A stretch of DNA of 14,142 nucleotides from positions 1 through 14,142 of the forward strand of contig NQJD01000048.1 in the NCBI GenBank assembly GCA_004284765.1. Direction: 5' to 3'. Every line of letters starts with the position of its first letter. The first letter of the stretch is position 1. A program made the translations under genes and the position numbers. This DNA is from Candidatus Electronema aureum (GTDB taxonomy: Bacteria; Desulfobacterota; Desulfobulbia; Desulfobulbales; Desulfobulbaceae). The notes below the pieces were generated by a model that was not told the DNA's origin, made no database searches, and saw only the letters and a program-made list of their open reading frames with translations. Shown piece after piece: positions 1-14,142 of the stretch.

Positions 1-127
1 CTGTACTTACAGTTGAGGAAATTAAAAACTATATTGAGGTGATTGACCCTTTAACTCAACAAATTATTATTAAGCCGGATTTAGCTTCAACATTCAAGCT
101 GGAACCGGATGGATTTGTCTTTGCGAA
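1..127. repeat. Terminal redundancy, copy 1. It is identical to 14016-14142 and marks the overlap of a circular molecule with a 14,015-bp unit.
   Basis: I compared the two ends base by base and all 127 nt match exactly. The reading frame from 13358 continues through the junction into 3..3149. Confidence 0.9.
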
Positions 128-3100
128 ACCACTCAATCTTGCTTTGAAATACAACATAGCTGCTTTGAGAGATAAGTTTACAGAGAATGATCTTACTATC
201 AGACATAATGGACATAAAGTGGAAACAACACTTGATACATATCAACAGATTGTTTCTGGTGAAATCAATCACTTTTCCAGTGTCACTATTTCGACCTACT
301 CTGGAAAATGCACAGAAGAAAAAGTCGGTAAGTTCAATAGTAGTTCACCGACACCGATAAAGTATTTTAATTGCGAGAACACTTGGGCATATCCATGGAT
401 GCACGTTGCTGTTGCTGATAGAGCCGCTCTTGCGACAACATACGAACTAAAAGTTTTAGCAGCTCATAACTCAGGTGAAACATTCAGAACGCAAACTGTT
501 CAGCATCTTGTTGACGAACACTTTCCAGATGCTGTTGTAGCGATCAATGGAACTACATTTAATTGCAAAGAAGGTGACGGTGAGGCTTGTTATGCCAAAA
601 ATATGGATGGGAGCTATCCAGTCTATACAACAGCTACAGATAGAAGGTTGAATCAACTGGTTACAAATCCTTGTGTTGATGGCAGTAAAGATAATTGCAC
701 GCCAGAAGTAGCATTAGCTTTTGGTGGAGATAACCAAGATAGAATTCCTATCCAATATTTAACCCATAATAGCAAGTTACTCGATAAAGAAAATAAAGAT
801 AAAGAACTTTATCTTTATGAAACTGTATTTCAAAAATCCTTTGGGATGAGTATAGGGGAGGTAGATATAGAGAAAGACAGGGCTATGAACGGTACAGCAA
901 TGGCCTCCATGATAGGGACGCACACAGGAATTAGGTTTGGGAATATTTGCAGAGTTTCTGGAGATACTGGACAAGGTAAAGAAGGTATTTTTATTGATAC
1001 CGAAGCAAGTTTATTCGGATATGGTCAAGATAAAATAATTTTTTTATCTAGTCATTACTCTCCGAATATCATTGATAGACCTTTCTGCACTTTTGATACA
1101 TTTGAAGATATGTGTGAGGCTGTCAGGCTCTTTGGAATAACAGACGCTGTTAGCTTAGATGGTGGCCCATCAGTACAGCTTGTTGTTGACAGAAATCTAA
1201 AGAATATTCAATCGCCTTCAGATGCCCGTCATGTCGTCAATGCTGTTGGGCTTGTTTGCAATAATCCTGACATGTCAAAAGGCTCTACTCCTGATCCTGA
1301 TGGAAAATACCGTATAATTCATTCAACAAAATATCGTTGTGAAGATAATCTCTGCTGGTCTCCAAGTTGGAAGCCCAACTTCGAGAATCTTGCCAAGGGA
1401 ACTTTGAGTTGCTGGGATGCCGATAAGTGGTTTGAAATCAAAGACGGTAATATCTGCGGAAATAAGACTGAGCGAGATCGTTCTATCTGCGCTGAAGTAT
1501 ATAAAAATTCGAGTAATGACGGGGAAACTGGCGACAACAGCACCAGCACCGGTGGTTCTTACACACCGCCAAAACCTGATGACCAGCCTGTTCCCGGTCT
1601 GCCTGACTTCATTATCAATAAAGTTACCCTTGCCAACGAAAGCGGGAGCAAAGAGAAATATCGTTGGAAAATTAACGAAACCGCCTACGTCCACTCATGG
1701 ACTGACAACATTGGCGATGCCAACTGGCAGGGCAGCGCAGACAAGATCAAAGTTCCTTTCTATCTCTCCAAAGGCATCCATGAGGACAGTCATTCTGAAT
1801 GGAAACGTATAGACCGAATGGAAATCAAGAGAGATAAACTCAAAGTCAACCAGCCGCCCAAGCACGAATATATCAAATTCAAGCTACAAGACTATGCCAA
1901 TGATGGCACAGTGATGCCGGGCCGCACCTACAATTTTGTGGTGTGTGCTGACCGTCCTCATGACGAAGACAACGGTGATGGTGATGTACAAGAAAAGCAC
2001 AAATCCAACAACTGCTCAACTGAAGCCGTCTTCTATGTTGACTACGGCCCACCTCGAAACGTTGACCTGACCGCCAGCAATCTCGCCCTTACTGGCGGCA
2101 GAACTTTGCTTCAGGCAGGCGAGAAATACGGCCTGCAAGTGGTAATCTCGAACATCGGCACAGAACCGCCTTGGAACGGCTTCCTCACCAGCTACGAAAT
2201 CAAAGGGCCGGGAACTGGCAACGTATGGCAGCGCATCAGTCAAGACAGTTCGCAGGCCAGCAGCCTGTATCAAAACGCCACTCACTCCGAAAGCATGAGC
2301 AGCGAGCAGGAAGTGAATGCGCCAATGGTTGGCGGTGATTATGTCTTCCGTACTTGTGCTGACTACACGCAGGCAGTGCCAGAGACCAACGAAAGCAACA
2401 ACTGCACTGCCGAACTGCCGGTTTATGTTGCTCCACCGCCAATGCCCGACCTGATCACCGAAGGGCTTCAGCTCACACATGGCCGCACCAGTTTGATTGC
2501 AGGCGAGCTGTACGGCCTGACTGTGAATGTGAGGAACATCGGCAATGCAACGCCTTCCAGCTACAGCTACACCAAGTACGAAATCAAAGGGCCGGGCACC
2601 AGCGATCAGTGGCAGAAGGTGGCTGAAGACGGCACAATGGCCGAGCATCTTGAACCGGGCATGACGCATTGGGAAGAGATTTCGGACGATGAGGGGTTGC
2701 ATATCCCTGCCGTACCCGGAACCTACACCGCCAGAGCGTGTGCTGACTATAAGGGCAATATCCCGGAATCAGACGAAGGCAACAACTGCTCTGAGATAAC
2801 CTTTGAGGTGGAGCCTGTTCCGGCTGGTTCGCCCCGCATTGTCATCACCAATCCAACCAGTGATGATGATTGGCGCAGCAGTGAAACAGACCATGACGTG
2901 CGCTGGGATTACTTTGATTTTCCTGTGCAGGGCAATGTGCGGGTGGAATATTCGCTTGATGGTGGCGCAACATGGCTTTTGATTGATGACGAAACCACCA
3001 ATGACGGCAAGAAACACTGGGAAGACATGTGCGATTATCACACGGTTGACACCCATCATGCCTACATCCGTGTCACTTCGCTGGAATATCCGTATGTCTA

Positions 3101-3149
3101 TGATGTCTCTGATGAGTTCACCATAGACCACGCTGCGGAGTGCGAGTGA
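3..3149 (+). CDS. Remainder of the same lipoprotein of about 1268 aa: NAGPA-like phosphodiester glycosidase domain, Cys-rich linker, three CARDB repeats and a C-terminal beta-sandwich-like domain.
   Basis: The frame is continuous with 13358..14142 across the junction, so the GTG at 39 in the ORF track is internal. NAGPA-like motifs: AVVAINGTTFN (nt ~530) and AVSLDGGPSVQLVVD (nt ~1150). CARDB repeats lie at about nt 1600-2040, 2060-2430 and 2446-2815. Each ends in C-A-D-x5-10-E/D-x-N/G-N-N-C (CADYTQAVPETNESNNC, CADYKGNIPESDEGNNC). The 20-mer tacgaaatcaaagggccggg recurs at 2194 and 2578, a 384-bp period. Stop codon TGA at 3147-3149. Confidence 0.8.
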   Translation, partial: VLTVEEIKNYIEVIDPLTQQIIIKPDLASTFKLEPDGFVFAKPLNLALKYNIAALRDKFTENDLTIRHNGHKVETTLDTYQQIVSGEINHFSSVTISTYSGKCTEEKVGKFNSSSPTPIKYFNCENTWAYPWMHVAVADRAALATTYELKVLAAHNSGETFRTQTVQHLVDEHFPDAVVAINGTTFNCKEGDGEACYAKNMDGSYPVYTTATDRRLNQLVTNPCVDGSKDNCTPEVALAFGGDNQDRIPIQYLTHNSKLLDKENKDKELYLYETVFQKSFGMSIGEVDIEKDRAMNGTAMASMIGTHTGIRFGNICRVSGDTGQGKEGIFIDTEASLFGYGQDKIIFLSSHYSPNIIDRPFCTFDTFEDMCEAVRLFGITDAVSLDGGPSVQLVVDRNLKNIQSPSDARHVVNAVGLVCNNPDMSKGSTPDPDGKYRIIHSTKYRCEDNLCWSPSWKPNFENLAKGTLSCWDADKWFEIKDGNICGNKTERDRSICAEVYKNSSNDGETGDNSTSTGGSYTPPKPDDQPVPGLPDFIINKVTLANESGSKEKYRWKINETAYVHSWTDNIGDANWQGSADKIKVPFYLSKGIHEDSHSEWKRIDRMEIKRDKLKVNQPPKHEYIKFKLQDYANDGTVMPGRTYNFVVCADRPHDEDNGDGDVQEKHKSNNCSTEAVFYVDYGPPRNVDLTASNLALTGGRTLLQAGEKYGLQVVISNIGTEPPWNGFLTSYEIKGPGTGNVWQRISQDSSQASSLYQNATHSESMSSEQEVNAPMVGGDYVFRTCADYTQAVPETNESNNCTAELPVYVAPPPMPDLITEGLQLTHGRTSLIAGELYGLTVNVRNIGNATPSSYSYTKYEIKGPGTSDQWQKVAEDGTMAEHLEPGMTHWEEISDDEGLHIPAVPGTYTARACADYKGNIPESDEGNNCSEITFEVEPVPAGSPRIVITNPTSDDDWRSSETDHDVRWDYFDFPVQGNVRVEYSLDGGATWLLIDDETTNDGKKHWEDMCDYHTVDTHHAYIRVTSLEYPYVYDVSDEFTIDHAAECE

Positions 3150-3262: not shown

Positions 3263-3700
3263 AAAACTTCAACGCACTCGGCCCTTGTAAAATAGGCAAG
3301 GCAAACAGGTCAACGGCTACCAAAGCCGAAGATTTCTCCCCGTATATTTTCCTGTTTTTCCTGAATCCATGAGGGTTTGCTGACTGAATTCGCTCCCCTC
3401 TATTCTTTTACTCCCCATTGTATTCCCCACATTTGCTTTGTTTTTGATGTTTCAAGGTCTGAAAAACGGTGTTGGTGAACCTGCCTTCTCTTCGATTCCA
3501 AGCATCGTCTTCAGACAGCCAAGGCAGTCCGCCCGGATCATCTCAACAATAACACTCCCCCTGACAGCGTTTCAGTGGATTTATCCCGGATAACCTACCA
3601 ACGGTCACAAGGAAGGCTATCATCGGCCCGCTGCTGCTCATTCACCTATCCAGTGTTCCTTGCAAATTTTTTGTTATATCATCTTGTTACATGTAGAAAA

Positions 3701-3807
3701 TAGTAAATACAATACATTGTTGCTGGCAAGTGATTGTATTTACTATGTTGATAACAAATCATTATTGATTATGAATAATGATTTGTTATTCATAATCAAT
3801 AATGATT
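3701..3807. promoter_or_regulatory. AT-rich inverted-repeat cluster upstream of the polymerase-like ORF; candidate origin or operator.
   Basis: Perfect 13-bp IR: tagtaaatacaat (3701-3713) with attgtatttacta (3733-3745). Perfect 16-bp IR: ataacaaatcattatt (3751-3766) with aataatgatttgttat (3774-3789). Overlapping perfect 20-bp IR: aatcattattgattatgaat (3757-3776) with attcataatcaataatgatt (3788-3807). Confidence 0.4.
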
Positions 3808-3963
3808 AGATTTAAAGTTTTTTAAAAAGTAAATTCCAAAAATAATTTTGTTATCCATTTGCCAAAATTTTTATTGACACTTTCAAAAAAAATAGATAAG
3901 TATGACTATTCCAAATATACTGGAAAATACCATTTAAAAAATATCAAAATAAAACACTGAAAA

Positions 3964-5337
3964 ATGCACAATATTCCTAATCCATTTATTGTTTTAAAGA
4001 CAAGTTACATTGATAAATCAAGATTTTCTATAATAGAAAACGAATTGAAGAACAACTGCATTTCCGATTCTTCTTCTTCAGAAGAAAGAAATTTGTTTTC
4101 ATCTATGTTGAAGCAATTTCTATTCAATTTAATTAAAGCAAATAATGACGAAAAGAAACTTCGTTACTCAAGAACGTATAGTATGTTTTGTACAGGAAAC
4201 AAATATTATAAAATCATTTTAAGAATAAATGGAGATGTTAGGCCGAAAAATTTAAAAAAAGCATACAATCTTTTCAGAGCGATTGCAGACACGTTATGCT
4301 TGACAGGATGGACTGAACAGAATATTGGTCGTTGGTACGGAAGTTTGCAAACAGAGATTTGGCTTTCTGAAAAATGCAAAGGATATTTTAACGATTTATC
4401 GAATGTTATATTTCAAAATGATAAAGAGCGTGAACTTGTTGTAATGTACAAATACACAAGCCAAGAAAAAGAAAGAATTAAATTTTCTAATGGAAATAAA
4501 ACATATATCAGCAAATGTAATTTTGTCCGTAAATTAAATATTTTTTATGAAAATTGCAAAATTACAGTTAAGGGGAAAATAAATATAACGAGCTATATAG
4601 ATTCTCTATTATCATCATTGTCAAAATACGCAAGGATTTCTCCAGTAAAAATGATTTTATGCTCAGAAAATGTGTATGATTTAGAGTTTGAATTATTTGA
4701 TAAATCTGTCAGGAGGGCTTTTTCTTATTCTGTTTTTGGTAAAGGAGGACGATATTCAGCAGTATGGACTAATTTTCCTGAAGCTCTTCAAGAAATTATT
4801 TATCTTAACCACAGCAACATTCCTTTAATAAAATTAGATTTTCAATCGTTTAACCCATCCATGTGTTATAGTCTGATTGGCCAGCCAAACTATGGCGATC
4901 CTTATCGAATTGATGGCATAGATCGTTCGATAGTTAAAAAAATGATAACAAGAATATTGAGTTGTGAAAACAAACAAAAAGCTATTGGCTCTATTAACAA
5001 AGAATTCAAAGAATTTAGTAAAGATAAGATAATTGAGATTATGAGCATTATCGAGGAAAAGCATTCTGCAATAAAAAATAGATTTTTCTATAAGAACAAT
5101 TCTGCAAAATTGATGAATTTTGAATCATCAATTTTAACTGATATTCTTGATGAATCAATATTTAAGAGGGGAATCTTCGTACTTCCTTTCCATGATGCTA
5201 TTTTAACATCTTTTGAAGATGCAAATGAGGTAATAAATATAATGAAAAATTCTTATATAAAAAATGTTATGAATTATCTGTCTAAAAACGGAATAGAATT
5301 GAAATCTGAAATTAACCCAATAATTAAATATAAATAA
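3964..5337 (+). CDS. Orphan 457-aa protein with family-A / T7-like single-subunit polymerase-like motifs. It may be a replication protein or another nucleotidyl-transfer enzyme.
   Basis: Long ORF in about 30% GC DNA. GKGGRYSAVWTNFPEALQ (G261-R263-Y264) resembles Pol I TGRLSS..PNLQNIP and T7 RNAP RGRVYAV. KLDFQSFNPSM (D292) resembles motif A DYSQIELR. DRSIVKK (R321, K325) has the motif B RxxxK spacing. LPFHDAIL (H410-D411) resembles motif C HDE/HDS. Motif order matches the family but spacing is shorter than in Klenow. No exonuclease motifs seen. Confidence 0.4.
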   Translation: MHNIPNPFIVLKTSYIDKSRFSIIENELKNNCISDSSSSEERNLFSSMLKQFLFNLIKANNDEKKLRYSRTYSMFCTGNKYYKIILRINGDVRPKNLKKAYNLFRAIADTLCLTGWTEQNIGRWYGSLQTEIWLSEKCKGYFNDLSNVIFQNDKERELVVMYKYTSQEKERIKFSNGNKTYISKCNFVRKLNIFYENCKITVKGKINITSYIDSLLSSLSKYARISPVKMILCSENVYDLEFELFDKSVRRAFSYSVFGKGGRYSAVWTNFPEALQEIIYLNHSNIPLIKLDFQSFNPSMCYSLIGQPNYGDPYRIDGIDRSIVKKMITRILSCENKQKAIGSINKEFKEFSKDKIIEIMSIIEEKHSAIKNRFFYKNNSAKLMNFESSILTDILDESIFKRGIFVLPFHDAILTSFEDANEVINIMKNSYIKNVMNYLSKNGIELKSEINPIIKYK

Positions 5338-5467
5338 TATCTTTATTTATAAATTCATTTTTAATGAATGGTTATTTCAGATTAATGAATATTTTTTATT
5401 TTTTACATTTAATCAGATTATCTCTTATCAGTTCTATTCATTAATATTCATTATATATATAAAATAG

Positions 5468-5501
5468 ACGGCAATAAAGGTCAAAGCCCTTTATATGCCG
5501 T
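5468..5501 (-). terminator. Stem-loop at the right edge of AT-rich block 1; possible minus-strand terminator.
   Basis: acggcaataaagg (5468-5480) pairs with cctttat(a)tgccgt (5488-5501), giving 13 bp with one bulged A and a 7-nt loop. On the minus strand the hairpin is followed by ctattttat. Confidence 0.3.
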
Positions 5502-5687
5502 ACTGAAAGTAGGCGAGGTGTTGGCGGTCTTGTGGTTCTATGAGGGATTGCGGGCGGGTACCCTTGTTACTATACGAAATTATTCAATATTTTTTATTTA
5601 TCAATAAAATAAACAGGTTAGGCAGGTCAGCAATGAAGTATGCCTTCATGTCTTTGACTTTCAGGGCAAGGAAAGAGCTGGCTGTCA

Positions 5688-5756
5688 GGCTGCTATCCAG
5701 ATTTGTGCCAAGAGGCCGTTTAATTTTCAATCTGATACCTTTCAGGGATAGCAGCC
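5688..5756. repeat. 11-bp perfect inverted repeat with a 47-nt spacer in a non-coding spacer region.
   Basis: ggctgctatcc (5688-5698) and ggatagcagcc (5746-5756). The short motif ctttcaggg occurs twice nearby. Confidence 0.5.
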
Positions 5757-5989
5757 ATGCGCAGGTATTGCCTGCTCAGATAAACGAATTTGGGGGCAAA
5801 AGAATTGCGTTTAAATACACAGAAGATAACTTGCGAATATTGTTAAGGAATTTTGGAAAACCTTGTAAGTTATTGTTAATATTCAAGATCATAAAAACAG
5901 GAAGATCAGCAGATGAATCTTTTAGATTTTGAAGGCCACCCGATCTTTGACTTGAAGGGGCAATGAGCAGACCTGCTCTAATTTCAACA

Positions 5990-5998
5990 GGGGGGGGG
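5990..5998. repeat. G9 homopolymer tract.
   Basis: acag+ggggggggca, nine consecutive G in a region with no convincing gene. Confidence 0.8.
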
Positions 5999-6288
5999 CA
6001 AATTTCGGTTCTTGCTGGTGCGGCAATAGGGTTGGACGTTCCAGCTTGAAAGTGGCTCTAATTCAATTTTAAAGGCACTCTTAGTCTCTGCTCTCAATCC
6101 ACCGCTCCGCGCCACCTTGAACGGGCTTGAACAAAACGAGGAACGGCAGGGCAGGGCTTTGAAGAGGTTGGGGGAGCAGATCAGCGATCTGTCCAGCCTG
6201 CGGAAGGATTCATGGACTCTATAACCAACGTGCTGAAAAAGCATTGCGACAGAGTGGAAGCGAAGCGTAAGGATGGCCCCCTCTCTTT

Positions 6289-6306
6289 CTGCTCAAATTT
6301 GAGCAG
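6289..6306. repeat. Perfect 18-bp palindrome just downstream of the minus-strand operon; weak terminator candidate.
   Basis: ctgctcaaatttgagcag lies 27 nt beyond the TAG (6333-6335) of the GAF-like gene. No flanking T-run. Confidence 0.3.
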
Positions 6307-6332
6307 CATCCGTTCCTACTTTCTGTTTTACC

Positions 6333-7253
6333 CTATTTGCCTTTTGTATCCGCTTTATCCTTATTTAAAATAAATTCAGAACAATACATCATTCTGATAA
6401 TTAAAAATAATGACACCATATCTGATACAATATATCCAAAACGGATATCTATATTATCGTTAAAATATTCTTTATGCCTGTGATCTAAACATAGAAATCC
6501 AAAGATAGTCTTATCGAAAGAACTATTTCCACCTACACATTTAATAAAATTTTTAGATACATTTGAGTTAATAATTGTCATAGGAATAACGATTGTGCTC
6601 TTATAGCAAGATTCTGCTGAAGGTCTATTTGTCTTATTATCAATATCCCAACAATTTTCCCATGATATATCTCTTTCAGTTTTTCCAAAAAAAAATTCTT
6701 TTAAAGAAAAAGATTCTACAATAGTATTCTTAACCGCATTAACATCTATTCTTTTGTTTACATACAAATCATTACGAACATATAAAGGGATATTATTACA
6801 GATATAATATACTCCTGTATCTTTTATATGTTTAAAAGCAGTATTCTCAATTATTGAGAACCTTTCAAAGGTACCTTTCTCCCCTACATCTCTATACAAA
6901 TCTACAATAAATTCATCCTGATAAGGAGACTTAAAGGTGACCCGTGGGGCATATTTTGATCTCCCATTAAAATACTCTTTAACATAAGAAGATGAAAGCA
7001 TAAAAACATCTTTTATTGAATTATCCAAAAATAAATCAAGCTCGTCAGATTTTAAATTAGCTTTTTCTACATGCTTGTGGATTAATAAATTTTGATATTC
7101 ATTATACATATCAAATGACACAACAGTATACTCTGCCAATTTAGTCTGCATCTTACAAAGATAATCATTAATTAATGATATATTGTTATATCTTATATAT
7201 GAAATCGTTTCAGCTAATTCAAATAGTATGTTCAGTATATTCATTTCTACCAC
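6333..7253 (-). CDS. GAF-like domain protein, fourth gene of the AT-rich operon.
   Basis: 306-aa ORF. The C-terminal half has a GAF-like pattern: RVTFKSPYQDEFIVDLYRD ... ENTAFKHIKDTGVYYICNNIP ... CYKSTIVIPM ... KTIFGFLCLDHRHKEYFNDNIDIRFGYIVSDMVSLFL. Compare the GAF consensus S-x-L-x-V-P-h ... h-G-h-L-x-h ... F-x-x-x-D. Start is uncertain: 7253, 7244 or 7151. The first two overlap the upstream gene. Confidence 0.45.
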   Translation of the reverse strand: MVEMNILNILFELAETISYIRYNNISLINDYLCKMQTKLAEYTVVSFDMYNEYQNLLIHKHVEKANLKSDELDLFLDNSIKDVFMLSSSYVKEYFNGRSKYAPRVTFKSPYQDEFIVDLYRDVGEKGTFERFSIIENTAFKHIKDTGVYYICNNIPLYVRNDLYVNKRIDVNAVKNTIVESFSLKEFFFGKTERDISWENCWDIDNKTNRPSAESCYKSTIVIPMTIINSNVSKNFIKCVGGNSSFDKTIFGFLCLDHRHKEYFNDNIDIRFGYIVSDMVSLFLIIRMMYCSEFILNKDKADTKGK

Positions 7254-7815
7254 ATTCTACAAAATAGTTTTCCTGACTATATGTAATATTTAGTTTTTTA
7301 AAATCCATATTTGGAATATTTAGTTTTTTAAAATCCATATTTGGAAAATTTGTCAATGACTGTTTTTCTACCTGTGATTTTTCTTTATTTTTTATATATC
7401 TTTCTATGTGCCTCATGGGAACAAAACAATTTTCTTTTTTTCTGGAATATTTACGCTCAAGATATTGAATATATTTATTCAATCTGATAACACATTGATC
7501 GTCCATTACTTCATTATTTTTAATTATTTCTTTCAGTAATTGCAACATATCACCATGTGTTTCTACTAAGATTTTATCTTTACTAATTCCATACGCATAT
7601 TTTTTATCTGAAAAATCAATTATTATTTTCCCTTGTCCATGTATATAGTTAGGTATATCTTCAAAAGATTTGTCGTAATTATCTATTACCAAAGATTCAC
7701 CATTTGGATATATAAGATATAACGAATTAGAATGCGGAACAATTTTTTTTGCTGCGATTATAAGTGGCGCAGGAAAAACAACGTTCGGATTTATATATCC
7801 TAAAATTTTTTTCAT
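7219..7815 (-). CDS. Orphan 198-aa protein with no recognisable domain, third gene of the operon.
   Basis: Its ATG at 7815 overlaps the TGA of the upstream gene (ATGA at 7812-7815). The ORF has the same AT-rich composition as its neighbours. It contains the in-frame duplicated decapeptide PNMDFKKLNI. Confidence 0.55.
   Translation of the reverse strand: MKKILGYINPNVVFPAPLIIAAKKIVPHSNSLYLIYPNGESLVIDNYDKSFEDIPNYIHGQGKIIIDFSDKKYAYGISKDKILVETHGDMLQLLKEIIKNNEVMDDQCVIRLNKYIQYLERKYSRKKENCFVPMRHIERYIKNKEKSQVEKQSLTNFPNMDFKKLNIPNMDFKKLNITYSQENYFVECGRNEYTEHTI
7287..7346. repeat. Perfect 30-bp tandem duplication inside the orphan CDS.
   Basis: tatttagttttttaaaatccatatttggaa occurs at 7287-7316 and again at 7317-7346. 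It is in frame (10 aa) and yields PNMDFKKLNI twice. Confidence 0.9.
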
Positions 7816-8645
7816 AGTTTTTTACTTATCGAAAGATAGTTTTTTACTTTTTCATGCAATAAAATATAGTCATTTTTCGGTCCAAAATCTTTTGGTACAG
7901 AATCATATTCATCTTCATCATAGTAGATAATTTTTACATTAAATTTACTAATTTTTCTGTTAAAATCATCATTTATAGGTAAATGAATAGGTGAAGAAAG
8001 AATGATTACCTCTATATATTCAAAATCAATATCTTGATGAATTAATACTTCTATAGCACGTTTTCTCCAATCTGCTTGTTCATTTTCTTCAGATTTGTAT
8101 AATCTGTCTAATAATTGATCACGGTTATCTATATTTCCACTGCATATATAAGGATATGTATTGAAATTTGCAGTAGAATTTCCGTTTACATAACCTTTGT
8201 TATTAGAAAAATAACGTGTTACTATCTTTGAAGGTACTTCTTTGTTAAAGAAGTATTCCTCATTTTTGATTTCAAAATTTTGTAATATTATAGAATCATC
8301 GTTAAGTAAATGTCGAAATTTCTTATAACCACCACTGTCAAACGGATAGATTTTTTTTGCATATTTAATTGCATCACTCTTCACCAACAAACCCATTGGC
8401 TTTGAAAAAGAAATATCAACAGAACAAGGATTTTTTTTAAAATCAACTCTTTCGTTGATAATAAAAAAAGGTAATCCATAATAAAAAAAAAGTCCAACCC
8501 CCTTGTTTGAATCCTTTTTCAAACCACTCATTACGATTGAATCTAAATTATCCGATTTCGTTGTATGTGCAAGTGGAAGCAATGGTTTTGATGAAGGGCA
8601 ATTATATATAATATCAAGAAAATCTACCATTTCCCTTCTTGTCAT
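7812..8645 (-). CDS. DarT/DUF4433-like ADP-ribosyltransferase-fold protein (H-Y-E type), second gene of the operon.
   Basis: 277-aa ORF. LPLAHTTKSDNLDSIVMSGLKK resembles DarT IYHITHIDNL..IL..G. GLFFYYGLPFF resembles Y-V-P-F-Y-F. WRKRAIEVLIHQDIDFEYIEVIILS resembles K-x-A-E-F-L-V ... I-E-E-I-x-V. Motif order matches the family. The start lies 2 nt after the SLATT-like stop. Confidence 0.4.
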   Translation of the reverse strand: MTRREMVDFLDIIYNCPSSKPLLPLAHTTKSDNLDSIVMSGLKKDSNKGVGLFFYYGLPFFIINERVDFKKNPCSVDISFSKPMGLLVKSDAIKYAKKIYPFDSGGYKKFRHLLNDDSIILQNFEIKNEEYFFNKEVPSKIVTRYFSNNKGYVNGNSTANFNTYPYICSGNIDNRDQLLDRLYKSEENEQADWRKRAIEVLIHQDIDFEYIEVIILSSPIHLPINDDFNRKISKFNVKIIYYDEDEYDSVPKDFGPKNDYILLHEKVKNYLSISKKL

Positions 8646-8647
8646 TT

Positions 8648-9106
8648 CTATTTCTGTTCAGGTTTTAACCTTGATTGAATCCAATGTTGGTTAGTATCTT
8701 TCAAGATAGATATATATCTATCATAGAATTTATCAATAACTTGTTCAGATATATTTTCATCTGATTTGATACAAGAATATAAAATATCTGTCTTTAATGC
8801 CTTTAGATCATTCGTTGTATCTGTATATTTAACCCATAATTTTTTATAATTAAAAAAAGAATCTAAAGTTGATAATACAGTTAGTGACGCACTTAAAACA
8901 AGTGCAAGATTTTTAAAAAATATTTTGTAAGTATCTTGTTCTATCCCTAAAAAAATTGTAATTAGAGCACTAATTATTATTAGTGTCATATTTAAATATG
9001 ACGACATTTTTCTATTAAACGTCCTTTTCTCTTCAAAAGATTTAATCTTTAAATCAACTTCCTGTTTAAGGAATGATATTTTATCTTCTATATGCTTTTG
9101 CATCAC
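8648..9106 (-). CDS. SLATT-like (DUF4231-type) two-transmembrane effector protein, first gene of the operon.
   Basis: 152-aa ORF with an N-terminal helix, then two hydrophobic helices (YLNMTLIIISALITIFLGI and FKNLALVLSASLTVLSTLDSFF). These are followed by NYKKLWVKYTDTTNDLKALKTDILY, matching the post-TM W...R/Y.T...L pattern of SLATT families. Start is GTG at 9106 or ATG at 9103. An agagagg Shine-Dalgarno sequence lies 8-11 nt upstream. Confidence 0.6.
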   Translation of the reverse strand: MMQKHIEDKISFLKQEVDLKIKSFEEKRTFNRKMSSYLNMTLIIISALITIFLGIEQDTYKIFFKNLALVLSASLTVLSTLDSFFNYKKLWVKYTDTTNDLKALKTDILYSCIKSDENISEQVIDKFYDRYISILKDTNQHWIQSRLKPEQK

Positions 9107-9184
9107 TTTCGTAGCCTCTCTTTATAAAAATCCAAAGCAGAATTACAGTGTGTCATTCCCGTGCTGTTTGTGATGCAGATTGCC

Positions 9185-9230
9185 CTTTGTTGAGATCGAA
9201 CCTGAAACTTTGTTGAGATCGAACCTGAAA
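9185..9230. repeat. Two perfect tandem copies of a 23-bp unit, 80-125 bp upstream of the SLATT-like gene; candidate operator or iteron-like site.
   Basis: ctttgttgagatcgaacctgaaa occurs at 9185-9207 and again at 9208-9230. Confidence 0.85.
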
Positions 9231-9896
9231 ATGTGGGATAGATTCATGTTTCAACATGCGACCTTTATGGGTCGCTTGAACGGGCAATTTACATCTGAGA
9301 TAAAAAAAGTCAAACATTTTTTAGAATTGTTTCAAAGGAAATAATTTAGAATGGACAGTTCAAGAAATTGTACTTCACCCGGAAACAGCGCGGCTCATCT
9401 CCTGCGGGCCGCCTGCTGATCGTTCAACTTTTGGCCTGCTGGACAATTTCAGCATCTGGTACGACCCCGGCAGAGCCTCGTACTGAATTTTTATACAGCA
9501 TGATACTACATAACTATGAAATATCATAGGGGAAAATAGCGAACCCCATTTTCTGAAACTGCCATTGAAAAATGGATAACCCCTATAATATTATTTGTAA
9601 TATAGTATTTCAAAAATTGGTTAAGATATTTAAGATTAGCGAATTCGCAGCGACTGATACATTTATCTGTATAAAAATATGTATTTGTAGATAAATGCAA
9701 TTATTTAAATAGAATATGCTGTTCATGCCAAGGATGACTGTATTTTGCCTTTAAATCGATTTCCTGTTAAAAAGGTAATTCCCTACGTTGGTTGGTTGGC
9801 AAGTGGAAATTCAGGCCATTCCAGTGCGATTTGGCGTATAGTGTGATAGGCTTGTGGAGGTATTGCCTCCCTTGCCCTGCGGCTGCACCTCCCTCC

Positions 9897-10823
9897 TTAC
9901 TGCTTGAATTCTCTTTTCCATGCGGTATAAGGTGCCTTCACAAGCATACATTCTGGCCCATCGCTGGCAATTATCGGTAGCAGGCCGGGGTCTTTCTTCT
10001 CAATGTATTTCAAAAATTCATCCCAGTATTCAGGAAAATTAGACTGTCTCGCTATTGGCTGCGGTTTGATAGCTGAATCTGCAATCTTTTGTAACGATTT
10101 GCCAACGTTTCCGGCCTTGGATTTTTTCCCATATCTCATATTATTTTTGATGATGATGAATTTGAGCCGGGTAATCTTGCGGCCTTCCCTGATAGTTTCA
10201 ACCTCAAAAGTCAGATCACATTTGTTTCTTCCAGTTTCGTCTATGGCTTCCATCTCCTTTTTGGCCTGAGCAAGGACGCGCTGGCTAAACCGTTTGTATT
10301 CGCGGTACTCATCTTTTTCGATGCCGAGAATTTCTCGAAGTTCTTTCAGCTCGAATCCTCGCCAGCCTATGGATGTATATTGACGCAAGAGCATGTATAA
10401 CCTAATCGTATATTTGCCCCCGAATCCTGTAATAATTGCCAGATCACAGATTGTAAATTCAGATTTCAGTTGGAGCAGGTACGGCTTCAAATCCGGCATG
10501 AAGGATAAAACAACACTTCCCTGCTTATGCTCTGCACGACATAGCCAGTGGATATGCACCAAGTTCCCTTGTGCCGATCTTATCGATAGAACGCGACTCA
10601 TAAGGTGCTTGGTTATCCCGACCAACTCCTTGTAGGCATCGGCCAAGTCAATCCCCATAAGCTGACTGAGTTCCTTGAGCGAAATATCGTATTCGTGCAG
10701 GGCATCATCCTCTGCACGAATTTTTGAGATTAGGCTAAAGATGAGTCTTTGTTCCAAGTTCGTTAATCTGTAACGTGCCTCTACTAACGAGTTCGACTGC
10801 ACGACCATAGTTTTTTTTAGCAT
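9897..10823 (-). CDS. Rep_3-family (RepB-like) plasmid replication initiator.
   Basis: The N-terminus MLKKTMVVQSNSLVEARYRLTNLEQRLIFSLISKI matches the Rep_3 signature (vvqsNeLieArY.Ltl.EqRli). I prefer the ATG at 10823 because gaggg lies 5 nt upstream. The ORF track extends to a TTG at 10889, which would overlap the promoter and operator. Iterons lie immediately upstream. Confidence 0.85.
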   Translation of the reverse strand: MLKKTMVVQSNSLVEARYRLTNLEQRLIFSLISKIRAEDDALHEYDISLKELSQLMGIDLADAYKELVGITKHLMSRVLSIRSAQGNLVHIHWLCRAEHKQGSVVLSFMPDLKPYLLQLKSEFTICDLAIITGFGGKYTIRLYMLLRQYTSIGWRGFELKELREILGIEKDEYREYKRFSQRVLAQAKKEMEAIDETGRNKCDLTFEVETIREGRKITRLKFIIIKNNMRYGKKSKAGNVGKSLQKIADSAIKPQPIARQSNFPEYWDEFLKYIEKKDPGLLPIIASDGPECMLVKAPYTAWKREFKQ

Positions 10824-10857
10824 TTTTACCCTCTTTAGTTGCTCAGTAATCTGTCCT

Positions 10858-10902
10858 TTCATCTTACTAAGGACTACGGAACTTGACAAGTGTAGTTCCG
10901 TA
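10858..10902 (-). promoter_or_regulatory. Putative rep promoter with an overlapping inverted-repeat operator.
   Basis: On the minus strand: TTGTCA (10889-10884), a 17-nt spacer, then TAAGAT (10866-10861). The 9-bp IR tacggaact (10875-10883) with agttccgta (10894-10902) overlaps the -35 and shares tgtag with the iterons. Confidence 0.45.
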
Positions 10903-10904
10903 TT

Positions 10905-10967
10905 GGGAATCTGTAGCCTTTTATATGGGAATCTGTAGCCTTTTATATGGGAATCTGTAGCCTTTTA
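10905..10967. repeat. Iterons: three direct copies of a 22-bp unit (the third is 19 nt), marking the oriV of the Rep_3 replicon.
   Basis: gggaatctgtagccttttatat occurs at 10905-10926 and 10927-10948, and gggaatctgtagcctttta at 10949-10967. They sit directly upstream of rep. An AT-rich stretch and the palindrome gtgcgcgcgcac (11034-11045) follow. Confidence 0.85.
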
Positions 10968-11648: not shown

Positions 11649-11927
11649 TTACTTGAAAAGATCGCTGTGACTGCCAGTTCTCTCTAAAATCAAATTGTCT
11701 TCATCTATCGTATAGATAAGAATCCAATCTGGTTCAACGTGGCAGTCACGGGAAGGTTTCCATTTTCCAGTCAAGCTATGGTCTCTACAGCTTGCATCAA
11801 GAGTTTTTCCATTTGCAAGAAGAGAAACAATTCGCTTGAGCTTGTCTAAATCCTTTCCACGTTTTGCAGCTTTTTTTACATCTCTTAAAAACTGGCGGGT
11901 CTGTGAAACTTTTTTTATCGCTGCCAT
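11649..11927 (-). CDS. yafQ: Type II toxin YafQ (RelE-superfamily mRNA interferase).
   Basis: The 92-aa product aligns by eye along its length with E. coli YafQ, including the identical HVEPDWILIY and a similar RDH.L.G.WK..RD. It overlaps the upstream antitoxin gene by 13 nt. Confidence 0.9.
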   Translation of the reverse strand: MAAIKKVSQTRQFLRDVKKAAKRGKDLDKLKRIVSLLANGKTLDASCRDHSLTGKWKPSRDCHVEPDWILIYTIDEDNLILERTGSHSDLFK

Positions 11928-12172
11928 GTCTCAAACATCTCATCCAGACTGGCAAAAGTCTCAATTTCCTCTCGCCTTCTGCTTTTCGCCAGAGTCTCGG
12001 CTGTGCAATTGTTGGGGATTTCCAAAGGGAAGGGAAGTCCATTGCCAAGGCAAATTTGGCGATAGAAGATTCGTATTGCCTCAGTCGGGGTCAATCCGAT
12101 TTGGCTAAGTATCTGTTCTGCCTGATGTTTAATCTCAGGCTCAATGCGGGTGTGGATAGTTGCTGTCTTCAT
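11915..12172 (-). CDS. dinJ: Type II antitoxin DinJ (RelB/DinJ family).
   Basis: MKTATIHTRIEPEIKHQAEQILSQIGLTPTEAIRIFYRQI..NGLPFPLEIPN matches the DinJ ribbon-helix-helix N-terminus and the LPF motif. I prefer the ATG at 12172. The track's longer ORF (to 12232) would run through the operator palindrome. Confidence 0.85.
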   Translation of the reverse strand: MKTATIHTRIEPEIKHQAEQILSQIGLTPTEAIRIFYRQICLGNGLPFPLEIPNNCTAETLAKSRRREEIETFASLDEMFETWQR

Positions 12173-12205
12173 GGTAAAAGCAGTGTAGCACAAATGCAAC
12201 ACAAA

Positions 12206-12230
12206 GATCAAGCAGGTATGCTGCTTGATC
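12206..12230. promoter_or_regulatory. Palindromic operator overlapping a putative dinJ-yafQ promoter.
   Basis: Perfect 10-bp IR: gatcaagcag (12206-12215), spacer gtatg, ctgcttgatc (12221-12230). On the minus strand: TTGATC (12211-12206), an 18-nt spacer, then TACACT (12187-12182), about 9 nt before the ATG, which implies a near-leaderless transcript. Confidence 0.45.
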
Positions 12231-12386
12231 ATCGCTCACCTGTTCAATTTTTTTTGCACCACAGCCTTTAAAATAGTAGCTTTTTTTATTTTTAGAGATA
12301 GATTTCAGGCAAGGTGGGGAAGAGACTTAGCCTGCGTGTGCAGGGGAGAAAGGCAGAACACTTTGCTCTCTTTGAGATAAGCTATA

Positions 12387-13361
12387 ATGGATAACGAATT
12401 CATAAAAATAATAGGCCCAGCAGCAGGATTAGGCGGTATCGCTCTTGCTGTATTCTTGAGCTTATTTCATAGCTTCATTCGGAAGTTAAAGCCAGTATCG
12501 CTCACACAAGATCAGTGGTTTCGTATAACCAGATTATTTTTGATTCTTACTTGGGCAATAGGAGCACTTGGTATAATCGCTTGGGCATTTGCAAGTCAAA
12601 ATGATAAAGGAGAGACAAAAAAAGAACTTCGTGCTTACGAAGCAAAATTTATCAATGATATAAACTACCCTGATGGCTCTGCCGTAATGACTAAGGAAAC
12701 TTTTATTAAAAGATGGTCAGTTCAAAATATTGGCTCTGCGGCTTGGGATAATTTATATATTCAGAGGATTGGAGTAAGCGATGGAGAGGGGCTGCTTAAA
12801 TCGGAGAATATTGGCAAATTACCGTATGTTTCTCCTAATGATATGGCTGAAATAAGTGTCAAGCTACACGCTCCATCACGTGGCGGAAGAACAATTGCAT
12901 ATTGGAAGATGGTTAGTAAAAAAGATGATTTTGTTTTAAAAAAGCAGAATCCTATTTTTGTTGAACTTCTTGTTAAAGATAACAGTTCTTTTGTTGAAGA
13001 TGAAAATTGTCCGAACGGTTCTATTTTCAGAACAAATGATGAATTTAAAAAGAAATGGGTAATAAAGAATATTACAAATAAAAAGTGGGTCAATATCTTT
13101 TTAAAAAAAGAGACTGGCGGTTTGTTGGATTCAGTTAATTTGATGCCTATTCCAGATATTCCTTCTGGTGAATCACGAGAAATAGAGCTTAAAATAATGA
13201 CTCCAAGCGACCCAACAACAACAACGACATACTGGACAATTATTGATAATAAAGGAAATAATTTACTTCCCGGTTCTTCCAATATCTATATGACAGCTAT
13301 TATTGTATATAGGCCGGAAGAAATATTTGGTGGATATTACGAACGATGCGACATGAAATGA
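12387..13361 (+). CDS. Membrane protein with two N-terminal TM helices and two tandem NBR1-FW-like Ig domains.
   Basis: TM segments: IIGPAAGLGGIALAVFLSLF and ITRLFLILTWAIGALGIIAWAF. FW-like repeat 1: FINDINYPDGSAVMTKETFIKRWSVQNIGSAAW ... ISVKLHAPSRGGRTIAYWKM. Repeat 2: FVEDENCPNGSIFRTNDEFKKKWVIKNITNKKW ... IELKIMTPSDPTTTTTYWTI. Both match F-x-D-x-x-x-P-D-G-x-x-h-x-x-x-x-x-F-x-K-x-W-x-h-x-N-x-G-x-x-x-W ... Y-W-x-h. The stop overlaps the start of the lipoprotein gene. Confidence 0.6.
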   Translation: MDNEFIKIIGPAAGLGGIALAVFLSLFHSFIRKLKPVSLTQDQWFRITRLFLILTWAIGALGIIAWAFASQNDKGETKKELRAYEAKFINDINYPDGSAVMTKETFIKRWSVQNIGSAAWDNLYIQRIGVSDGEGLLKSENIGKLPYVSPNDMAEISVKLHAPSRGGRTIAYWKMVSKKDDFVLKKQNPIFVELLVKDNSSFVEDENCPNGSIFRTNDEFKKKWVIKNITNKKWVNIFLKKETGGLLDSVNLMPIPDIPSGESREIELKIMTPSDPTTTTTYWTIIDNKGNNLLPGSSNIYMTAIIVYRPEEIFGGYYERCDMK

Positions 13362-14142
13362 GGCACATTATGTGTAAACTGAATGGTATCCTTTGTGGCG
13401 TTGTTGCTCTGTCTCTGTTTGTTGGATGCGGCAGTGCCTTGGCTGAAAAAGCGCAACTTGATAACAATGCGGCATCAGAGATTGTTCTTGATGTAGTGCG
13501 GATTGAAGCCTGCGTTGATAATACAGATGAATGCTTCGTTGCGGGTGGGTCGAAGCAGATGAATTTGTTTGACTTGGCTGAAGGGAAGGTTGAGGCTGAA
13601 GGGAAGGTTGATTTTGCCAAGCAGGTGCTATTGCCGGATAACACCACGGAACTGAGGCTTGTTCTTGGGGACAAGAGCACCGTTGCTGTGAATGGCAAAT
13701 CGTTTTCGTTGACCGTACCGAGCGGACAGACTTCTGGGCTGAAGCTGAAAGGCGAGAATATTTTCCCTAAGAAAGGAGGTTTTCTTACAAGTCTTGCTTT
13801 GAATTTCGATCTTGGCAAGATGCTTGTTGAGCAGAAAAAGAATGGAACTGATGCGGCCTATTCGCTGAAACCTGTTATTCAAGTGGCTTCTGCGGATATT
13901 AAACCGATGCCGGAGAATACAGTGGGGGCAGTGGTGCTGCCGGGACAAGAAAGCGTTATAGAGCTGGGCAATGCTTTTACTTTGTCTATTCCCTCTGGTG
14001 CTGTTTCTGGGGCTACTGTACTTACAGTTGAGGAAATTAAAAACTATATTGAGGTGATTGACCCTTTAACTCAACAAATTATTATTAAGCCGGATTTAGC
14101 TTCAACATTCAAGCTGGAACCGGATGGATTTGTCTTTGCGAA
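13358..14142 (+). CDS. N-terminal part of a large lipoprotein (signal peptide with lipobox, then a DUF4382-like domain). The ORF runs off the window end and continues at 3..3149.
   Basis: The ATG at 13358 overlaps the upstream TGA (ATGA); an alternative ATG lies at 13370. The frame I translated has no stop through 14142. N-terminus: MRHIMCKLNGILCGVVALSLFVGCGSA, with hydrophobic h-region followed by the VGC lipobox. DUF4382-like motifs: LTVPSGQTSGLKLKG, LALNFDLGK, YSLKPVIQV. Frame arithmetic: 658 + 3149 = 3807 nt = 1269 codons. Confidence 0.75.
   Translation, partial: MRHIMCKLNGILCGVVALSLFVGCGSALAEKAQLDNNAASEIVLDVVRIEACVDNTDECFVAGGSKQMNLFDLAEGKVEAEGKVDFAKQVLLPDNTTELRLVLGDKSTVAVNGKSFSLTVPSGQTSGLKLKGENIFPKKGGFLTSLALNFDLGKMLVEQKKNGTDAAYSLKPVIQVASADIKPMPENTVGAVVLPGQESVIELGNAFTLSIPSGAVSGATVLTVEEIKNYIEVIDPLTQQIIIKPDLASTFKLEPDGFVFA
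13577..13612. repeat. 18-bp in-frame tandem duplication inside the DUF4382-like region.
   Basis: gctgaagggaaggttgag (13577-13594) and gctgaagggaaggttgat (13595-13612) match at 17 of 18 positions, giving AEGKVE-AEGKVD. Confidence 0.85.
14016..14142. repeat. Terminal redundancy, copy 2, identical to 1-127.
   Basis: Exact 127-nt match to the window start. A length of 127 is typical of a k-mer overlap left on circular contigs, which is inference. Confidence 0.9.

Follow-up and report, generated by a model that had tools for sequence, protein, structure and literature searches.

A DarT-like ADP-ribosyltransferase fold and its predicted cognate partner in a four-gene plasmid operon of Candidatus Electronema aureum

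We analysed a complete contig of 14,142 nt (hereafter the window) from a metagenome-assembled genome (MAG) of Candidatus Electronema aureum, a cable bacterium of the Desulfobulbaceae, concentrating on an AT-rich operon of four genes on its minus strand, here called g1 to g4 from the first gene to the last. The core of this operon appears to be a two-gene module. Its first member, g2, is predicted to adopt an ADP-ribosyltransferase (ART) fold closest to that of DarT, and belongs to a widespread family for which we collected 153 loci across many phyla. The second, g3, would be the cognate partner of g2 and a candidate adaptor or antitoxin, a conclusion that rests on a conserved gene slot and on sequence similarity that is weak but significant. 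The flanking genes g1 and g4 encode a predicted SLATT membrane protein and a predicted GAF-fold protein. Arguing by analogy with known systems, we give an even chance to the interpretation that the operon is a defence or addiction module, in which an ART toxin would be held or targeted by an adaptor, with the SLATT and GAF genes as local additions.

The second gene encodes a predicted ADP-ribosyltransferase fold

The open reading frame (ORF) of g2 (7812-8645, minus strand, 277 aa) is deposited as hypothetical protein CDV28_1486. A word-indexed search with it returned g2 itself alone, and an exhaustive phmmer search of 1.84 billion representatives recovered 84 full-length relatives at E ≤ 1e-3, which are 250-270 aa long and share 22-36% identity with it. 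In the family alignment D103, G105, D192, R194 and E199 are invariant and H27, G57, P101 and F102 near-invariant (E199 and H27 as judged over 58 sequences), and the g2 of the window keeps every one of these residues. An AlphaFold2 model of g2 built on this alignment (predicted local distance difference test, pLDDT, 86.7; predicted template modelling score, pTM, 0.87) places the candidate active-site residues H27, Y55/Y56 and E199 on strand 25-30, on strand 52-56 and at the start of strand 199-202, respectively. When the PDB was searched with Foldseek, the top match was E. coli DarT1 with NAD+ (8baq, E = 4.9e-4), followed by the Thermosipho and M. tuberculosis DarTG structures (7omu, 7yk3) and by Thermus DarT (7omx/7omy). 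The DarT structures span E-values from 4.9e-4 to 5e-2 and target-normalised template modelling (TM) scores from 0.47 to 0.51; after them the list gives Tpt1/KptA and PARP10, and all of these are ART folds.

Sequence models of DarT score g2 below their cutoffs. Pfam DarT (PF14487) gives 16.2 bits against a cutoff of 22.5, over residues 183-219 around E199 only, and NCBIfam DarT (NF048013) gives 12.4 bits against a cutoff of 150; the PADLOC DarT model returns E = 0.0038. Across the family the DarT models touch 1 of 58 members, the g2 of the window, and apart from that sub-threshold match the relatives of g2 match no Pfam, NCBIfam or PADLOC family. Alignment of the g2 profile with Thermus and M. 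tuberculosis DarT by hhalign (E = 0.0019, probability 14%) extends over 22 columns that hold the H27 strand-helix motif only, pairing PLAHTTKSDNLDSIVMSG in g2 with PIYHITHIDNLKGILRMG in DarT. The H motif recovered by hhalign and the E motif recovered by the DarT hidden Markov models (HMMs) lie in the correct order and on the correct secondary-structure elements of g2; PMC11543638 gives an account of DarT's catalytic glutamate and of the motif of the H-Y-E class. Searches of PDB sequences with g2 and with its profile gave nothing meaningful, and the one match of a 56-aa query around E199, to the repeat protein Crov588, was set aside as an artefact.

On its modelled structure, g2 is an H-Y-E class ART fold, most like DarT yet outside the DarT family. 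An earlier reading of this DNA (the original prediction) had described g2 as DarT-like with an ordered H/Y/E set; the AlphaFold2 model and Foldseek matches bear out an ART fold nearest to DarT, whereas the DarT sequence models are not passed and no DarG-type neighbour accompanies the gene.

A conserved partner gene follows members of the g2 family

Loci of the g2 family were collected with sub-alignments around the LLYFFYG(R/K)P and YPFD(S/T)GA motifs, 73 of them from reference genomes and 80 from metagenomes, and their ORFs were called afresh. In 133 of these 153 loci the next downstream gene, always on the same strand, carries a common N-terminal domain of about 110-130 aa with the consensus L.G...P....P.F..PVF...Q....I..F....G....AF....G....L....P.L....F; with relaxed settings it appears at six more, and eight of the rest stop at a contig edge. 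The family gene and its partner overlap by 4 nt in 56 pairs, matching g2 and g3. A search of PDB sequences with the partner N-domain profile gave nothing meaningful, and an ART-partner pair on a Rhizobium plasmid is annotated in its GenBank record as hypothetical proteins.

The g3 ORF (7219-7815, minus strand, 198 aa) occupies this conserved slot, directly downstream of g2, on the same strand and with a 4-nt overlap. Against the partner N-domain HMM it scores 11.3 bits (E = 5.6e-5), its residues 1-13 and 70-102 aligning collinearly with model positions 1-17 and 71-103, and none of 5000 composition-preserving shuffles of g3 reaches this score (best shuffle 9.8). Profile alignment by hhalign places residues 3-100 of g3 on positions 8-102 of the partner domain (E = 5e-5, probability 67%). 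Among the 7270 ORFs of all loci, the sole direct phmmer match of g3 is the gene in the same slot of locus L084 (E = 1.2e-4), to which it shows 37% identity over residues 4-52 by BLASTP. The N-terminal ~100 aa of g3 correspond to the partner-family domain, and the C-terminal ~95 aa are without assignment. Because g3 combines the conserved slot, the collinear match to the partner domain and the bridge through L084, it is not an orphan, and the earlier view of it as an orphan standing in for a macrodomain gives way to that of a conserved cognate partner of the g2 family.

Three further observations concern g3 and its closest relative. The region 2666-7371 of L084 holds a direct g3 homologue and is the context nearest to that of the window, and upstream of its ART-like gene lie genes for a 680-aa SMC/AAA-like ATPase and a 320-aa protein with two transmembrane segments that by eye resembles abortive-infection membrane proteins. 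Within g3 itself, Tandem Repeats Finder (TRF) located 2.5 copies of a 30-bp tandem repeat (7278-7351, minus strand), which encodes a duplicated decapeptide, PNMDFKKLNI. The same plasmid is represented by a sibling contig from an unrelated sequencing run (L010, SRR14559659), which shows 100% identity throughout the 12.8 kb that align, apart from a single 30-nt unit in g3; since its g3 (P0129) lacks exactly one 10-aa repeat unit and is otherwise identical, the repeat is polymorphic in copy number. Finally, a programmed +1 frameshift joining g3 to g4 was considered and found no support: the g4 frame has a TAG stop two codons ahead of its GTG, and the sole candidate, AUU UGA A, is a poor slip site.

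Partner proteins carry a wide range of clients

What follows the shared N-terminal domain, be it the C-terminus of the partner or a separate next gene, differs greatly from locus to locus (HsdR, SNF2 helicases, DnaA, S9, FtsZ, RpoA). Pfam tallies covering 107 partner proteins show the domain fused to full-length ribosomal protein S9 (7), DnaA-type ATPases (6), FtsZ (2), RpoA, S17 and GcrA, and in other partners to response regulators, a nonribosomal peptide synthetase (NRPS) module, alcohol dehydrogenase, AhpC, lysine monooxygenase and the C-terminal domain of FlhA. The S9 fusions examined sit outside the native rplM-rpsI operon. In-frame fusions of the putative adaptor to S9 (L063, L067, L072, L074, L078), DnaA-type ATPases (L014, L046) or RpoA (L050) are extra copies away from the native operons, and the fusion in L067 lies in a region that, with gene products judged by eye, resembles an integrative and conjugative element (ICE).

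Restriction systems provide a second kind of setting. In L080 (2019-11092) the module forms part of a type I restriction-modification (R-M) operon with the order hsdM-hsdS-ART-adaptor::hsdR-YgjP peptidase, in which every junction overlaps by 4 nt; in L073 (1748-10424) the order and the gene sizes match those of L080, except that 39 nt separate the ART gene from the gene before it. The module in L059 adjoins McrB-like and HsdM genes. Where the partner is short, the client is often encoded by a gene of its own that comes next and overlaps it: SNF2 in L044 and L056, ParA-TPR-DUF1828 in L096 and L146, and a 787-aa ORF, with a 25-nt overlap, in L059. These split-off next genes fall into the same classes as those seen in fusions. 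By analogy, the arrangement of g3 and g4, with its 26-nt overlap, fits this split layout of a short partner and a next gene.

A predicted SLATT membrane protein precedes the module

The g1 ORF (8648-9106, minus strand) encodes 152 aa, or 151 aa from the ATG at 9103 as annotated on the sibling contig. It passes the cutoffs of the NCBIfam SLATT_1 model (NF033634; E = 3.2e-25, 88.6 bits, cutoff 41) and of Pfam DUF4231 (PF14015; 33.6 bits, cutoff 24.7), falls below those of the Pfam SLATT_1 and SLATT_5 models, and gives only weak matches to PADLOC models, namely those of reverse transcriptase (RT)-associated SLATT (E = 2.2e-5) and a CBASS 2TM effector. Hydropathy (Kyte-Doolittle, 19-residue windows above 1.4) marks two stretches, at about 33-60 and 61-85, with the hydrophobic helices themselves at about 36-55 and 62-85. 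By family models and hydropathy, g1 is predicted to be a minimal two-transmembrane protein of the SLATT_1/DUF4231 kind, in agreement with the original prediction of a SLATT protein with two transmembrane helices.

The enzyme gene that adjoins g1 across a 2-nt gap encodes the ART-fold protein and none of the classical SLATT partners (SMODS, SLOG, TIR, RT). A SLATT_1 protein close to that of g1 adjoins the g2-family module in 3 of the 153 loci, namely L050 (Cognatiyoonia), L051 (an alphaproteobacterial MAG) and L059 (Roseivirga), so the pairing recurs in phylogenetically distant genomes but is rare. In the RT-based system DRT10, SLATT is a required effector, often in a coupled SLATT-enzyme gene order (10.64898/2026.04.29.721553), and SLATT proteins have been predicted to respond to derivatives of ADP-ribose (ADPr; PMC9503650).

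The fourth gene encodes a predicted GAF fold

The g4 ORF (6333-7253, minus strand) encodes 306 aa; starting from the ATG at 7244 it yields the 303-aa product deposited as hypothetical protein CDV28_1484. We found 44 homologues, none with a precomputed Pfam domain, which share a conserved core (ENTAF, Y.CNNIP, Y.N.RI, W..CW, CYKST.V.P, FGFLC.DH) and in which R104, N137, N166, R168, W198, W202, Y217, K218, S219, D257 and D269 are invariant. Searches of Pfam, NCBIfam and PADLOC with g4 gave no match (Pfam 0 families at E ≤ 1, GAF models included), and its profile found nothing meaningful among PDB sequences. The AlphaFold2 model (pLDDT 87.7) consists of a long N-terminal helical hairpin (2-94) and then a GAF fold (~100-305). 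All 50 of the 50 Foldseek PDB matches listed are GAF domains or GAF-containing proteins (phytochromes, PDE2/5, cyanobacteriochromes, fRMsr); 15 of these 50 have E ≤ 1e-3, the best being 4.4e-5, and the best target-normalised TM score is 0.73. On this model g4 is a GAF fold, which upholds the GAF-like core proposed originally, though no Pfam GAF model matches. Its clustered invariant polar residues suggest that it may bind a small molecule.

In the nine other contexts examined, relatives of g4 are solitary in every case and lie in variable or mobile surroundings, with neighbours that include PIN/Phd and VapBC pairs, an integrase, T5orf172, a Tad2-like protein, a caspase-like peptidase and nucleases. 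No ART or SLATT gene stands beside a g4 relative in these nine contexts, and g4-family genes occur in 0 of the 153 g2-family loci. In three contexts the g4-family gene is followed by a conserved ORF of ~60 aa (..NYF(I/V)SIDD..; L003 6936-7115, L005 4179-4364, L004 3981-4082) that is absent from the window, and the intergenic regions before these three g4-family genes are unusually long (250-1180 nt).

A proposed mechanism and competing explanations

In the interpretation we favour, the core of the operon would be a two-gene module of an NAD+-using ART-fold enzyme with an H...Y...E set (g2) and a translationally coupled protein with an N-terminal adaptor domain (g3). The adaptor would bind the ART and either keep it latent or direct it, and a variable client attached to the adaptor, which in other genomes is fused to it or encoded by the next gene, would set what the system watches. 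Here the client slot would be filled by the overlapping g4, as a GAF-fold ligand-binding protein. On triggering, the ART would ADP-ribosylate a macromolecule, most likely nucleic acid by analogy with DarT, and growth arrest would follow. The SLATT protein g1 may be an added membrane effector, possibly gated by an ADP-ribose-derived product, and the net role of the operon would be abortive-infection defence, plasmid addiction or both. What the analysis shows is the gene structure, the folds, the family membership and the conserved pairing of g2-family genes with a partner; that g2 is toxic, that g3 neutralises it and what g1 and g4 contribute are inferred.

Several points weigh against this interpretation. 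Toxicity and neutralisation are analogies, and the likeness of g2 to DarT is at the fold level only, with TM scores of ~0.5 and sequence models below cutoff. The homology between g3 and the partner family is weak (11 bits; hhalign probability 67%). The g4 gene is not beside the module elsewhere, its tie to the module resting only on the 26-nt overlap, and small two-transmembrane proteins show no enrichment upstream of it (4/130 vs 6/487). Some clients, among them NRPS, alcohol dehydrogenase, AhpC, lysine monooxygenase and response regulators, are ordinary as enzymes or regulators go, and sit poorly with a guard or trigger model. Finally, the only other copy of the operon is on the same plasmid and is identical but for the 30-nt unit, so it affords no selection analysis (dN/dS).

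Among the alternatives, the one that survives best, unlikely as we consider it, is that independent modules (a SLATT gene, an ART and partner pair, and a GAF-family gene) have been stacked in an AT-rich island, where they share a promoter and have no functional coupling. This would accommodate the solitary g4 relatives found elsewhere, some of which have a small ORF of their own downstream that the window lacks, as well as the rarity of the SLATT association, and unrelated defence genes often pile up in mobile-element islands. However, the 2-nt gap and the 26-nt overlap point towards co-translation, one and the same SLATT_1 subtype stands beside the module in three unrelated genomes, and the layout of a short partner with an overlapping next gene recurs.

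Less probable is a targeting or regulatory cassette that contains no toxin, in which the adaptor recruits the ART to the fused protein or is itself ADP-ribosylated so as to regulate that protein, much as DraT does. The fusion of partners to full-length housekeeping and metabolic proteins (S9 in seven cases, DnaA in six, and FtsZ, RpoA, S17, GcrA, NRPS, alcohol dehydrogenase, AhpC and response regulators) is what such a cassette would look like, with the ribosome (via S9), the origin (via DnaA), RNA polymerase (via RpoA) and a restriction complex (via HsdR) as possible destinations, and no hydrolase-type antitoxin (macrodomain, NADAR) lies nearby. Yet the fused housekeeping genes examined are extra copies outside their native operons, many loci lie in defence or mobile settings (type I R-M, McrB-like, and an ICE-like region judged by eye), and the g3 of the window is without a recognisable client domain.

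Least probable is the obligate four-component pathway of the original prediction, in which the GAF protein senses a small molecule and activates the ART, the ART product opens a SLATT pore and g3 serves as immunity protein: the packing of all genes as for translational coupling, the three correct fold assignments and the place of SLATT proteins in the literature as nucleotide- or ADPr-linked effectors (PMC9503650; 10.64898/2026.04.29.721553) speak for it, but the g4 family is solitary in nine contexts and absent from the 153 g2 loci, SLATT is present at 3 of those 153, and the pair of g2 and partner evidently works without SLATT or g4. Whether the four genes co-occur in other genomes had been named beforehand as a refuting test, and as a set of four they were found together elsewhere only on the near-identical copy of the same plasmid. 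What stands of the sensor-enzyme-effector proposal are its SLATT, ART and GAF assignments; a fixed four-part system does not (g4 at 0/153 loci, SLATT at 3/153).

Relation to known systems

For the interpretation that we favour, of an ART toxin held or targeted by an adaptor, three known types of system offer the closest comparisons, and GAF sensors a fourth for g4. With DarTG, the operon shares a two-gene, overlapping toxin-partner layout on mobile DNA (g2/g3); the best structural matches of g2 are DarT1 and DarT2, and g2 has the H-x-T..DNL..I motif and the R..(A/I)E.L(V/I) glutamate motif of DarT. In contrast to DarT, g2 is ~70 aa longer and has family-specific invariant PFD(S/T)G and D.R motifs, and the partner of its family is a new domain of ~110-130 aa with variable fusions rather than a macrodomain or NADAR. 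Neither a macrodomain nor NADAR was matched by g1, g3 or g4 or appears among the top 25 Pfam families listed for the 107 partner proteins.

Like the SLATT genes of known defence systems (CBASS/SMODS, SLOG, TIR-SLATT and the RT-SLATT system DRT10), g1 lies directly upstream of an enzyme gene, and a tight coupling of SLATT and RT is the predominant DRT10 arrangement (10.64898/2026.04.29.721553). The enzyme neighbour of g1 differs from theirs in being an ART-fold protein, not a cyclase, SLOG, TIR or RT, and this is a minority variant of the module (3/153 loci). The GAF region of g4 (~100-305) resembles that of phytochromes, of PDE2/5 and of fRMsr; g4 departs from these sensors in its N-terminal helical hairpin, in its family-specific invariant polar and Cys residues and in having no output domain.

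PrrC is an anticodon nuclease that guards the type I restriction enzyme EcoprrI, and prrC occupies the slot between hsdS and hsdR. In L080 and L073 a g2-like gene lies between hsdS and hsdR, and by analogy this PrrC-like slot suggests that the toxin is latent and linked to the complex under its surveillance. The differences are that the g2 toxin fold would be an ART and that of PrrC is an ABC-ATPase/HEPN-like nuclease, that the g2-like toxin would be tied by a dedicated adaptor domain fused to HsdR, and that the window is without restriction genes.

Novelty and wider implications

ART-based toxin and defence systems are known, and ART toxins (DarT, CmdT, ParT, RES) feature more and more in work on bacterial immunity and on toxin-antitoxin biology. 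What appears to be new here, judging by sequence comparison, is a further unnamed ART family together with a partner of a new type, an adaptor domain with a very wide range of proteins either fused to it or encoded just after it. The ART family, the adaptor partner and the breadth of fusions are absent from four family libraries, and no description of them was found in an incomplete search of the literature. The earlier remark that no named system of this gene composition was known holds, in that no Pfam, NCBIfam, PADLOC or PHROGs family covers g2 to g4 and no description was found in that literature search.

If the role of the adaptor is to hold the toxin, while latent, on copies of the ribosome, replisome, divisome or restriction complex, it would provide a general and testable design for watching essential machines for phage attack, and the tethered proteins would make up a set of natural baits indicating phage targets. 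More speculatively, and with little confidence, we raise the joint possibility that the g2/partner family is a modular guard system in which the ART toxin is docked via its adaptor domain onto extra copies of central cell machines, that the S9, S17, DnaA, FtsZ, RpoA, GcrA, HsdR and SNF2 copies are baits for phage effectors, and that the window holds a split minimal form with a GAF bait and SLATT as second effector. Such a system would parallel, in bacteria, the integrated decoys of plant NLR (nucleotide-binding leucine-rich repeat) proteins and would generalise PrrC-EcoprrI.

Organisation of the operon and its plasmid

The four minus-strand ORFs are tightly packed, as had been described: the TAG stop of g1 is followed by AA (8646-8647) and then by the ATG of g2, an ATGA (7812-7815) is common to g2 and g3, and the overlap of g3 with g4 measures 26 nt with the g4 start at 7244 and 35 nt with the start at 7253. 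Since each has homologues or a family match, these ORFs of 150-300 codons are not chance occurrences in DNA of 26% GC. The GC content of the block is 26.5% (g1 24.6, g2 27.5, g3 25.6, g4 27.1), compared with 43.5% for rep, 45.8% for the CARDB ORF and 46.2% for relB; the entire contig averages 37.8%, and sliding windows reach 56%. The AT-rich block on a higher-GC backbone was another element of the original prediction that our computation reproduced (26.5% against 43-46% for the backbone genes), as was the perfect 2x23-bp tandem repeat upstream. The latter, TTTCAGGTTCGATCTCAACAAAG on the minus strand, was found by TRF and a repeat finder at 9185-9230, 79-124 nt upstream of the g1 start and outside the AT-rich block. 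This direct repeat occurs once in the window (0 of 200 shuffles gave two matches) and may be an operator or part of a leader; a weak sigma-70-like site, identified by consensus match only, lies upstream of it at 9313-9286.

Nucleotides 1-127 of the window are identical to nucleotides 14016-14142, and because the two ends share these 127 nt the replicon is circular, with a length of 14,015 bp. It encodes a Rep3-type initiator (WH1+WH2) at 9897-10889 (minus strand), adjoined by three 22-bp iterons (10904-10967) that are likely to mark the origin. This rep/iteron region (9897-10967) is missing from the sibling contig, probably through an assembly break. A megablast search of PLSDB with 3600-9400 gave no match, and Rfam and tRNA scans of the window were likewise without matches. 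As part of the interpretation we favour, and with the same even chance, this small Rep3 plasmid would have gained the four-gene block, an accessory operon, by horizontal transfer, and the block is a candidate reason for plasmid maintenance in cable bacteria.

The plasmid carries other genes of note. At 11649-12232 (minus strand) lies a RelB antitoxin/YafQ toxin pair, a second, conventional addiction module. A second AT-rich island (3600-5500, 22-32% GC) contains a 457-aa ORF (3964-5337, plus strand) that matches only PHROG 4756, of unknown function (E = 7e-24), and a 24-bp repeat in 1.9 copies lies upstream of this ORF at 3762-3807. The CARDB/NAGPA ORF at 39-3149 runs on across the circular junction and reaches 1264 aa on the sibling contig. 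A membrane-anchored protein encoded at 12387-13361 carries two NBR1-type Ig-like domains (PF16158, E = 3e-25), and downstream of its gene an 18-bp sequence is repeated twice at 13576-13611.

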